Source of the DNA: Eledone cirrhosa
Lineage: Eukaryota
NCBI GenBank assembly: GCA_964016885.1
Contig: OZ024754.1
Location: 44,826,001 to 44,890,000 of the forward strand
DNA length: 64,000 nucleotides
Direction: 5' to 3'
Shown here: positions 6,593-36,378 of the stretch, piece by piece
How positions within the stretch are numbered: position 1 is the first letter of the stretch
Layout of the letters: each line of letters begins with the position of its first letter
Program-made: the position numbers and the translations under genes
Notes under the pieces: model-generated
The model's input: only the letters and a program-made list of their open reading frames with translations
Told to the model about the DNA's origin: nothing
The model's database searches: none

Positions 6593-7040
6593 AGTGGAGA
6601 CTTCTGGTGTCCTTACTACTTACCACCATAGGCGCTGAGTTGACTACTCCTACAGTGGAGACTTCTGGTGTCCTTGACCCTAGGGCTACCTCCCTACTTA
6701 CCACCACAGGCGCTGAGCTGGCTACCCTTAGCTGTGGAGACTTCTGATATCCTTGATCCTAGGGCTACTTCCCTACTTACCACCATAGGCGCTGAGTTGA
6801 CTACCCCTACAGTGGAGACTTCTGGTGTCCTTGACCTAGGGCTACCTCCCTACTTACCACCATAGGCGCTGAGCTGGCTACCCCTAGTTGTGGAGACTTC
6901 CGATATCCTTGATCCTTGGGCTACCTCCCTACTTACCACCATAGGCGCTGAGCTGGCTACCCCTAGCTGTGGAGACTTCCGGTATCCTTGATCCTTGGGC
7001 TACCTCCCTACTTACCACCATAGGCACTGAGCTGGCTAGC
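6593..7040. repeat. About 78-bp tandem repeat, about 6 copies
   Basis: gtggagacttctggtgtccttgaccctagggctacctccctacttaccaccataggcgctgag... repeated. Confidence 0.92.
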
Positions 7041-7104
7041 CGTAGGTGTGAGCCTCGCGAGATGGAATGGCTTTTCCAGCGCATCTCCCTTACATCCCCC
7101 GGGG

Positions 7105-13469: not shown

Positions 13470-13848
13470 AAGCTTACTCCTCTAGATCCGACCTGTTCTG
13501 CTAGAACTAATAACCTTATATAAACCTCAAGTGGTACCCACAATTGAGGACTCCTCCCTCCTCAAAGCTTACTCCTCTAGATCCGACATGTTCTACTAAA
13601 ACTAATAACCTTATATAAACCTCAAGTGGTACCCACAATTGAGGACTCCTCCCTCCTCAAAGCTTACTCCTCTAGATCCGACCTGTTCTGCTAGAACTAA
13701 TAACCTTATATAAACCTCAAGTGGTACCCACAATTGAGGACTCCTCCCTCCTCAAAGCTTACTCCTCTAGATCCGACATGTTCTACTAAAGCTAATAACC
13801 TTATATAAACCTCAAGTGGTACCCACAATTGAGGACTGCTCCCTCCTC
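13470..13848. repeat. 95-bp tandem repeat x4 (ABAB)
   Basis: agcttactcc starts at 13471, 13566, 13661 and 13756. Confidence 0.95.
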
Positions 13849-16038: not shown

Positions 16039-16512
16039 ACCATAATTTCCATCAACAAAACAACAAACAATATATTGCAGACGATAAAGTGACGACATAT
16101 TTGGTAAAAGATAGAAACCGTCACTCAGATATAAAATGAAGAAAAACAATTATTATTTGCACATTTCATAAAATTATATTATTATTTATAAATAAATAAA
16201 AATATGACGTGTACTAAAACTCAAATAAATGATTTATCTGCCAGTTTAAAATATTATTGAATATATGGAAAACTTTTAATATATTCAAGAAATAATTTTG
16301 AGAACAATGAAATTGGATAGAAAACCGTCAACGCAATACTGGTGTTTGTTGAATTTCACTATTACTAGTAGGAGTACCCGACCTGGTCCGGATTTAGGGA
16401 AAATATTAGATAACGTTATACAGCCTATGACCTTCTCTTGAAATATATACAAAATTTTACTTGGGTGCAAATTATAACATATATGTATGTATGTAAGTAT
16501 GTAAGTATGTAT

Positions 16513-16622
16513 GTTCTTCTGGTTTTATAATATCACAAACGTTTGCCAATAGAAAGAGAGTCGGTTTCTAACATAGATACACGACCCTCCCATTGGAATT
16601 TACACAACATCAACTAGGTAGA
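16513..16622 (-). mobile_element. Probable retroposon 3' tail inside a (TATG)n array
   Basis: About 110 bp unique segment between TATG runs; minus strand ends ...ccagaagaacatacatac. Strand is inferred. Confidence 0.45.
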
Positions 16623-16632
16623 TATGTATGTA

Positions 16633-16663
<31 letters not shown>

Positions 16664-16751
16664 ATGTATGTATGTATGTATGTATGTATGTATGTATGTA
16701 TGTATGTATGTGTGTGTGTGTATGTTTGTATGTATATATGTATGTATGTAT

Positions 16752-17131
16752 GGCAGAATTCTAGGAGAATGAAAACTCTGATGTAACACCTGCAACCCTG
16801 ATGGTATCCAATGATGTTGACTTGTTCTTCTTTTTGGTAAATATCATCTTGGTTAAGAGAGTGGGACTGACTTTGTGCAGTGCCTTTGCTCACTATAAAA
16901 GCTTCACGGCACATGCATTGCTTTATATCTGGAGATCTCTCTGCACTCGTCGTCACATGGTACCATGGGCCCAGAACTATGTGTCAATAATTGTCACAAG
17001 TGTAGTGTTTGTACCAGAGTTTTCAAGTCGCTGGCTGGACTAAAAAGTCACACTCGTTCAGCGCATCGGTAGGGGTTCTCCTACATGGATATAAAGTAGT
17101 GGCCGTACTCGAAAACGAGTTGGCAGCCACC

Positions 17132-17133
<2 letters not shown>
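16752..17133 (-). mobile_element. Second, shorter copy of the 35194 element
   Basis: Reverse complement of 35194-35575 with few substitutions and the same start (atggtggctgcc). (TATG)n on both sides. Confidence 0.85.
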
Positions 17134-33818: not shown

Positions 33819-34377
33819 ACTGACAACAACAATAACAACAATGGTATCAACAACAATATTGACAACAACAACAACAACAATAGTAACAACAACAGCAATG
33901 ACAGGAACGTAATTATGTAGTTCTCCCTTCTTGGCAAATGGCTGTTACCAGAATTGTTACAAGAAAAAGGGCCAACATCTTTATCTAAATTAAGCCCTCT
34001 CTAGGGACATAATTTTGTTTGTTTAATTCACTTAGATTGAAATCATAGCTCCGACTACCTGTGGAACTTCTTTGCACTCTCAATGATTAAGTAAGCTAAA
34101 AGTGCAGTACCAAGGTCCCTCTTTGTCTGTGTACTATTAGCTCTTGGAATGTATTTAAACATCCCAACTTATTATATTCTTTTAGTAAATTCCTAAGTAC
34201 TTTACAAGTCCATGGCTATTTTATATATCAATCATTCATAATACCAATAACGTCATGTAGCTAAAGGAGTATTTAACTGTTTTCAATTCAACAGCGGCTG
34301 ACGGAGTGAATAGTTACTGAAACTTATCAATGTCTGGGGAGGTAACTTGTGACAAATATCCCATAGGCTTTTCCAGT

Positions 34378-34581: not shown

Positions 34582-34834
34582 TATTTCAGTTTCATTCTTA
34601 CCGTTTGTTTAATTCACATAGATATGATGTCATAGAACCGGCTACCTGTTGAGCTCTTTATAACTCTATTGGATTAGATAACTAACTCAAATGAACCGAG
34701 ATTATATTGCCTAGGTTTACATGTGTTGAGGTCTTTACCTCACCAAGTTCCAAGTTAATTCCCATTGTACGATTCTTGTGCAAACCTCACCTAAAAATTG
34801 TGAGAGACACTCTCTAAAGTCTGTCTCTAAAGAT

Positions 34835-34947
34835 TAGAGCTCATCAGGACGGTGCTTATCCAGGTTTCCAATACTCCCACCTGGACAGGACGCCAGTCAA
34901 TCGCAAGGTTAAACTCCCATCTATTGCTGGTACATCTATACTGGAGC
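34835..34947 (-). mobile_element. SINE central-domain (V-SINE-like) fragment
   Basis: Minus strand aaccttgcgattgactggcgtcctgtccaggtgggag...gaaacctggataagcaccg resembles the recalled V-domain consensus. Confidence 0.5.
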
Positions 34948-34950
34948 AAG

Positions 34951-35047
34951 CTTGGTGGGGTTGCCGGTTTAGTCACCGACGAACCGACCATCAGAGAGGT
35001 TGTACTGGGTTACATGTTACCAGTAGCACTCGAGAGCGACCTGACAT
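34951..35047 (+). mobile_element. Isolated 3' tail shared with the 35194 element
   Basis: cttggtggggttgcc.gtttagtcacc...ggttgtactggg.tacatgttaccagtagcac...gacctgacatac matches 35707-35803. Followed by (CATA)n. Confidence 0.75.
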
Positions 35048-35146
35048 ACATATATACATACATACACACAAGCATACATACATGCATACACACAAGCATA
35101 CATACGTGCATACATACATACGTATATACGTACATACATACATACA

Positions 35147-35178
<32 letters not shown>

Positions 35179-35193
35179 CCCATACATACATAC

Positions 35194-35803
35194 ATGGTGG
35201 CTGCCAACTCGTTTTCGAGTACGGCCACTACTTTATATCCATGTAGGAGAACCCCTACCGATGCGCTGAACGAGTGTGACTTTTTAGTCCAGCCAACGAC
35301 TTGAAAACTCTGGTACAAACACTACACTTGTGACAATTACTGACACATAGTGCTGGGCCCATGGTACCCTGTGACGACAAGTGCAGAGAGATCTCCAGAT
35401 ATAAAGTAATGCCTGTGCCGTGAAGCTTTTATAGTGAGCAAAGGCATTGCACAAAGCCAGTCCCACTCTCTTAACCAAGATGATATTTACCAAAAAGAAG
35501 AACAAGTCAACATCATTGGATACCATCAGGGTTGCAGGTGTTATATCAGAGTTTTCCTTCTCCTAGAATTCTGCCTTGACAAAGGCTAAGGGGTTATCTC
35601 TCCTGGTGATTTTGGATGGCCATTGACTCTTAAGAGCTCCTTTGCTCTTTGACAGGTTGTTTTTAGTCCTGCAGGATGTCCAAAGTCACCCTCCTCACCA
35701 AGAAACCTTGGTGGGGTTGCCAGTTTAGTCACCAAAGACCCGACCATGAGACAGGTTGTACTGGGATACATGTTACCAGTAGCACCAACTGGTGACCTGA
35801 CAT
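35194..35803 (+). mobile_element. About 610 bp non-coding interspersed element bounded by (CATA)n
   Basis: First 382 bp are near-identical (inverted) to 16752-17133. Last about 97 bp are similar to 34951-35047. Confidence 0.75.
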
Positions 35804-35841
35804 AATACATACATACATACATACATACACACATACATACA

Positions 35842-36108
35842 TACACCTTTAGCTTCATACCCATCATTATTGGAGCTACAGGTTATATACCAACCCGCTT
35901 GGACCAAGGTATGACTGAACTTGGATTTGCGGACAAAAAGCGCACCTCCCTAATTCATAGTCTACAAATGGCTGCGGTAGCTGGCACCTTCAAAATTTGC
36001 AAAACATTCTTGCGATTCAAGGGATGACAATTTCTTTTCTTTTACAACCTTGCCACCAGGAAGGTGGCCGGTCAAAAAAATATACTCGAAATTAAGAGAA
36101 AGAGATAA
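35842..36108 (+). mobile_element. 5'-truncated R4/Dong-like non-LTR retrotransposon (RLE-domain C-terminus plus 3'UTR)
   Basis: Stop-free 35848-36027: FSFIPIIIGATGYIPTRLDQGMTELGFADKKRTSLIHSLQMAAVAGTFKICKTFLRFKG*. The PIIIGAxG motif and terminal LQ..A..GT.KI.K.FL are characteristic of R4/Dong RLE elements (recalled). (CATA)n on both sides. Confidence 0.75.
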
Positions 36109-36378
36109 CATACATACATACATACATACATACACACCTATGATTTAAGACAACTTTAGTTCAACATGTCTGCAATATCTCTGCTTATTAAACTTGCTTG
36201 TTAAACTTATTTTTCCACATATTAACTTCAGGTATTTTGTCTTTTACAAAAATTCTGTTGTTTCCGTTTTATGTCAAACATTTTATTCAGATTTCTGTGT
36301 TTAGAAAGCATTGATTTATATTTTAATTTTTCAGCTATTGTTAAAAGTTTTTCTTTCGGCTGATTTCATGGTTTAGCG

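Follow-up and report, generated by a model that had tools for sequence, protein, structure and literature searches.

A (CATA)n microsatellite of Eledone cirrhosa as a probable target of a Dong/R4-type LINE and of RTE derivatives on the opposite strand

Along a stretch of 64,000 nt from the 3.0-Gb genome of Eledone cirrhosa (the window), a (CATA)n microsatellite very probably holds a plus-strand Dong/R4-type LINE, called R4a here, and two minus-strand RTE derivatives, element A and a piece of family C, inserted independently by two machines (Table 1). The initial annotation had recognized three repeat pieces with (CATA)n spacers between them, and the window sequence agrees. The pieces belong to dispersed families: two genome searches returned 1147 and 1215 first-look candidates, and in each search 40 candidates were scored and 30 fetched. 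It should be noted that the copies are the best-scoring matches of each search and not a random sample, and that the rates given below describe young, query-like copies. Simple repeats are very plentiful in this genome. Elsewhere, the window contains minisatellites at 6616-7050 and 13470-13848 (units of 79 bp and 95 bp) and two 57-bp direct copies, 83% identical and ~590 bp apart (34017-34073 and 34603-34659).

Table 1. Features of the repeat locus, in window positions.
Feature	Positions	Strand	Basis
Family C 5′ head, first ~102 nt	34945..35047	-	95% identity with a family C copy (its positions 1-102); family C extent; alignment of heads
Degenerate (CATA)n/(TATG)n array	35048..35193	.	5′ flank of family C head, 3′ flank of element A
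Element A, full-length 610-bp copy, apparently a bipartite non-autonomous RTE derivative	35194..35803	-	Fixed ends in dispersed copies, truncation asymmetry, 5′ inversions
Element A 3′ tail with predicted stem-loop	35195..35228	-	85% over 34 nt to RTE-D 3′ end
Putative end of an RTE ORF: terminal C2H2 zinc finger plus stop codon	35255..35332	-	PF00096 profile match; RTE-D terminal finger
Element A internal segment	35385..35592	-	Alignment of A 215-419 with L067 4361-4582
~195-nt 5′ head of element A, includes the "97-bp tail" of the initial annotation	35610..35803	-	Common to families A, B, C and LINE L140
(CATA)n array, head-to-head between element A 5′ end and R4a truncation point	35804..35845	.	
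5′-truncated R4a copy, last 265 of 4220 nt	35841..36107	+	97.4% to full-length copy L230
End of the ORF in the R4a copy (stop 36025-36027), then ~80-nt 3′ UTR			
(CATA)n array at 3′ junction of R4a copy	36108..36135	.	

The LINE piece had been read as the stop-free C-terminus of an element of the restriction-like endonuclease (RLE) type, and this reading stands. Positions 35848-36024 give 59 aa ending in RFKG, and the DNA is 97% identical to the end of a full-length element with both reverse transcriptase (RT) and RLE; the peptide is not that of a host gene. Full-length R4a, found by searching with the 5′-most part of longer copies, is 4220 nt long and consists of a ~630-nt 5′ UTR, a single ORF and a ~80-nt 3′ UTR. 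The ORF of 1169 aa, intact in 8 of 13 full-length copies, contains both enzymes that the initial annotation had proposed to look for: the RVT_1 domain (475-726) is followed by a CCHC knuckle (980) and a PD-(D/E)xK restriction-like endonuclease (RHD at 1009, PD at 1059, E..K at 1075), as the R4/Dong clade demands. The endonuclease region is common to 22 homologues, and R2 proteins are the nearest solved structures to the R4a protein. R2 and NeSL carry N-terminal C2H2 zinc fingers, unlike R4/Dong; in R4a, a pattern scan of the first 350 aa and a Pfam search of the first 100 aa found none. Near the N-terminus, where a divergent Myb/SANT-like domain would be expected of the R4/Dong clade, 13 of 15 long homologues have a conserved W...W helical motif, and a single-sequence model predicts three helices there, with a pLDDT of only 61 and no PDB match. 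R4a is best classed as a Dong/R4-type LINE, a placement by domain layout rather than by a named-reference tree. It is a young element with intact, near-identical copies, the 13 full-length ones being 99.8% identical pairwise in a 600-nt test region.

The 5′ UTR of R4a (about 1500-1900 of L230) is very A+T rich, with near-duplicated blocks inside. Near-identical R4a sequence also occurs in public sequencing runs of several organism labels (word share 0.23-0.70 in 11 rows); among the runs listed, none is of RNA. Three of four assembled runs span all 30 bins of the element (L230 1386-5605), with depth climbing toward the 3′ end. Close relatives or transfer may be the source of this sequence. Relatives elsewhere may sit in CATA or CTTA repeats; among metagenome contigs, none with flanks was confirmed.

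The insertion preference of R4a was read from the 24 nt upstream of 58 distinct copies from outside the window, which have 46 distinct 5′ start points. The flank is CATA-type in 53 copies, (TA)n in one and of other sequence in four, and never TATG-type; the background rate, taken from 20 blind regions of 10 kb, is 1.6% per strand. Among the five exceptions, one falls at the edge of its locus, one directly abuts element A and one has a mixed TA/CATA tract, while in the other two a CATA tract lies ~20 nt farther out. On the 3′ side, 38 of 42 readable flanks are CATA-type, and the junction has a fixed phase, TAACA or AAACA in 39/60. Strand-specific insertion of an RLE LINE into (CATA)n, as the initial annotation had suggested, is supported by these counts. 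Random 5′ flanks had been named as the sign that CATA is merely a templated tail. What is found instead is CATA at many different 5′ truncation points, which is impossible for a templated tail. Pre-existing CATA was likely needed at the insertion site. Since no empty, pre-insertion allele was seen, some flanks may have been lengthened by later expansion of the repeat. A second, more diverged R4-type family sits in the same arrays with the same polarity. It has a 3′ UTR of its own, followed by ACATA in 20 of 21 cases.

The short elements had been placed on the same strand as the LINE. This is not borne out, as element A lies on the minus strand. Copies selected by the shared 97 bp at its right end all extend to the far end (29/29; the alignment is a single block in 27 copies, and spans an internal deletion in L005 and L009). 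When the left end is used for selection, only 12 of 29 copies extend to the 97-bp end, and 17 of the 29 are 5′-truncated or inverted, a signature of retrotransposition. The right-hand part is inverted in three copies (L091, L095 and L096). Target-primed reverse transcription leaves retrotransposed copies with their 3′ end. Since copies of element A keep the left end, its 3′ end is at 35194, and it reads along the minus strand. The predicted hairpins of the tail fold about equally well on the reverse strand, and hence the hairpin does not by itself fix the orientation. A solo LTR, with TG at the start and CA near the end of the plus strand, was also considered; it is rejected, given that truncation is polar, that some copies are inverted and that the sequence is homologous to RTEs.

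In its own sense, element A has a 5′ flank that is TATG-type in 33 of 58 copies, (TA)n in 11 and other in 14, with no CATA-type flank. Its 3′ junction reads TGTAT in 53/87 or TATAT in 16/87. The repeat preference of element A is real, yet looser than that of R4a.

Copies of element A have a mean pairwise identity of 96.3%. The initial annotation called both short pieces non-coding, which needs correction for element A: its minus strand appears to hold the last C2H2 finger and the stop codon of an RTE ORF. The finger matches PF00096 with an E-value of 3.4e-5, just short of the curated cut-off, and is identical at 17 of 27 positions (63%) to the terminal finger of family D (RTE-D), an autonomous APE+RT LINE. 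Element A also resembles the 5′ UTR of RTE-D (67% over 227 nt), and its 34-nt tail is 85% identical to the RTE-D 3′ end, differing at 5 of 34 positions. By these homologies, element A appears to be a bipartite non-autonomous RTE, in which a 5′ UTR is joined to a 3′ end. A small-RNA-derived head (tRNA or 5S) was also looked for; no Rfam family reached the gathering score in 34700-36200, and the head is RTE-borne.

The tail of about 97 bp that the two short pieces were said to share is indeed shared (35701-35803 and 34945-35047; ~100 bp, 84%). It is not a tail, being a 5′ head. Truncation asymmetry, inversions and the start of a LINE in a blind region (L140) all speak against a 3′ tail. By alignment, the 97 bp are the start of a ~195-nt head that opens families A, B and C. 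The same head, together with a microsatellite-like linker, starts the LINE of L140 (177-~3700, +), an older, unrelated RTE of the APE+RT type that is full-length but decayed. This LINE has a target-site duplication of 11 bp and another tail, and is not flanked by CATA. At L136 4372-4582, the ~195-nt head and linker precede yet another sequence. This distribution suggests swapping of 5′ UTRs among RTE families. An HDV-like ribozyme was sought in the head with a rough descriptor, which found none in four sequences, and no Rfam ribozyme reached the gathering score. RNAalifold of 127 head pieces, which were out of register, gave no usable signal.

The first piece of the locus begins at 34945 and not at 34951 as annotated initially. 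It is a head of family C, a non-autonomous RTE-type family of ~530 bp (88% pairwise identity), distinct from element A. The family C body is absent at this piece, which is joined on its left to SINE-like DNA. The join is peculiar to the window copy: a 248-bp query across the junction had 39 other matches, all of which cover only the family C head part. Since the join is unique and the body missing, the piece probably arose by a local deletion. A composite SINE reaching to the left was rejected, the junction being found in 0/39 other matches. The SINE-like body itself (34820-34950) joins the head over a short shared stretch. Its minus strand has CTGATGAG and GAAA motifs, which presumably recall a hammerhead ribozyme, and the body presumably recalls a V-SINE-like core; there is no Rfam hit.

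We infer that an RTE moved element A and family C. Only relatives of a parent of element A were found, namely family D and L140. Family D is young and abundant (99.0% pairwise identity), and by hand count ~44 of 150 scored matches lie in open frames of at least 1150 aa. It ends in a hairpin of the same kind as the tail of element A, followed by TGTA or TA repeats. Its copies (L178-L197) include many intact ORFs of ~1180 aa that carry three zinc-finger-like motifs at the C-terminus, and microsatellites fill the UTRs. The ~195-nt head is joined to none of 31 copies of family D, whose 5′-most segment is different. An autonomous element with both ends of element A was not found among the copies examined, none of which runs from the 3′ part into a long ORF. 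A protein search with the finger returned one candidate and nothing significant. Mobilization of the short elements by the R4 LINE, as first envisaged, is not supported: in blastn they have no match to the 4220-nt R4a on either strand. The second R4-like driver postulated for the 97 bp fares no better; a second R4 family exists, but it ends in its own 3′ UTR.

The two kinds of element lie back to back in the repeat in a regular manner. Neighbors with CATA-type spacers of 8-300 nt were counted in every locus that had been fetched, each junction once, a similarity-chosen set in which young copies are over-represented. R4-RTE neighbors are opposite in 68 of 69 cases, whereas like pairs have the same orientation (23/23 for R4-R4 and 43/44 for RTE-RTE). 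A mirror-image chain is present at 16512-17133 of the window, where the 3′ UTR of the second R4 family (-), a (TATG)n array and a 5′-truncated element A (+) follow each other.

What is observed is the anatomy, the strands, the flank enrichment and the homologies; the nicked strands and the order of insertion we infer. The R4a protein, with its N-terminal helical domain, RT, CCHC knuckle and restriction-like endonuclease, would recognize the repeat and nick its TATG strand, always in the same phase. The RNA would be copied from the nick, often stopping early, and this would leave 5′-truncated copies flanked by CATA at either end. As probable internal-deletion derivatives of RTEs, elements A and C would depend on an RTE whose APE+RT protein recognizes their 3′ hairpin. 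The RTE machine would prime on the opposite (CATA) strand, more loosely, taking (TATG)n and (TA)n. Both insertions would occur by target-primed reverse transcription, possibly guided on the RTE side by pairing of the RNA end. With the polarity of each clade on the repeat fixed, repeated insertion gives trains in which R4 and RTE are opposed. The RTE-made repeats may also seed or lengthen the arrays (cf. the account available in PMC2887409).

How the RTE side finds the repeat can be viewed differently. While R4a would be sequence-specific, the RTE could be drawn to TA-rich purine-pyrimidine repeats by annealing of its RNA 3′ end, without any specificity of the endonuclease. We give this view a little under even odds, and it refines the two-machine explanation rather than replacing it. 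The looseness of element A would be natural under annealing, since 25 of 58 copies have (TA)n or other flanks, and the older RTE with the same head and another tail lies outside CATA. A published model, as outlined in PMC6007223, likewise ties the 3′ repeats of RTEs to site choice, through pairing or the choice of cleavage. The strength of the bias is harder to accommodate: 76% of the copies (44/58) lie in TATG or TA repeats against a background of ~7%, an enrichment that probably exceeds the expectation from one- or two-base microhomology.

That there is no true targeting at all, with slippage writing the CATA and TATG tails and later elements gathering passively in tolerated A+T rich patches, appears improbable. 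RTE elements are reported to make microsatellites at their 3′ ends (in the portion of PMC2887409 available), and passive gathering would suit a genome rich in simple repeats and the mixed flanks of the RTEs. The CATA at 46 truncation points of R4a, however, lies beyond the reach of a templated 3′ tail. The polarity is also strict, CATA versus TATG being 53 versus 0 for R4a and 0 versus 33 for element A, and the 3′ junction of element A varies with the site (TGTAT or TATAT), as expected of a target-derived repeat. The original picture, in which all three pieces lie on one strand and the short elements owe their mobility to an R4-like LINE by way of a common 3′ tail of 97 bp, drew on the (CATA)n that follows all three on the plus strand, the ~100 bp shared at the right ends of the short pieces, the likeness of the lone 100-bp piece to a 5′-truncated tail and, at first, three head-only matches in the blind regions, but it is very hard to sustain when truncated copies retain the left end and inversions affect the right, two of the three head-only matches run on into other elements when viewed in sequence, one of these two being a full-length APE+RT LINE that begins with the 97 bp, the short elements do not match R4a, the second R4 family has a 3′ UTR of its own, and 68 of 69 R4-RTE pairs are opposed.

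Insertion of Dong elements into microsatellites is itself familiar. RLE clades are described as mostly target-specific (PMC4640811, as far as its text was available), and Dong as targeting (TAA)n in Bombyx, Anopheles and Biomphalaria (in the accessible text of PMC3812793) and in most insects, molluscs and cnidarians (in that of PMC7998251). According to the same two partial texts, the Dong elements (Bombyx Dong, DongAg, DongBg and ostracod Dong) are like R4a in their single ORF with RT and restriction-like endonuclease, in having no N-terminal zinc finger and in microsatellite insertion; the target is (TAA)n there, whereas two families lie in (CATA)n here. In the open-access PMC and bioRxiv literature, in the text it makes available, Dong was nowhere found to have (CATA)n as its target. 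Dong-R4 and RTE families have been recently active in octopuses (PMC9115989, PMC13282606 and PMC8967140, in the sections at hand), including five recently active Dong-R4 families with 1129 insertions in Octopus vulgaris (PMC13282606, same sections). The sections at hand of these three papers give no insertion target, and the word "target" is absent from those of PMC13282606. Waldo, of the R1 clade, is like R4a in targeting ACAY microsatellites, the ACAT repeat included (PMC3812793, in its accessible text). Waldo elements come from insects, are of the APE type and have no relation to the RLE element here, and a (CATA)n-type target common to both would be convergent.

The RTE side has counterparts as well. 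Bipartite elements are reported from four clades, RTE among them, and those described (Bov-A, RTESINE, WALLSI3 and RTE-N2_Lch) are like element A in that only the 5′ UTR and the 3′ end are retained (PMC5786205, in the part available). Unlike the bipartite RTEs described in that part, element A retains a putative terminal C2H2 finger and has a strong (TATG)n/(TA)n bias, and one ~195-nt head recurs across families A, B and C and an unrelated older RTE while being absent from family D. Family D itself can be likened, by published description, to RTE-2_OV of Octopus vulgaris, which has EN, RT and C2H2 domains, UTRs of ~600 nt and a microsatellite from the ORF end that fills the 3′ UTR (the available text of PMC9115989). 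The ORF is 1109 aa there versus ~1180 aa in family D, and that text gives no insertion preference for RTE-2_OV.

In closing, microsatellite targeting by Dong and the bipartite build of RTEs are already known, and what this locus adds is a new target together with a correction of the anatomy. The wider reading is one on which we stand evenly divided: that a Dong lineage exchanged (TAA)n for (CATA)n as its target and remains active, that an RTE lineage, of a clade not deemed target-specific, was independently directed to the other strand, that two endonuclease classes thereby build polarized trains, and that RTE families swap a modular ~195-nt 5′ head. Intact Dong-type copies with another repeat make TAA versus CATA a natural pair for dissecting how an RLE chooses its target, a choice that bears on tools for site-specific gene insertion. 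The RTE partner on the opposite strand accounts for the mis-oriented short pieces in automatic annotation and for the mixed trains of elements in CATA microsatellites.
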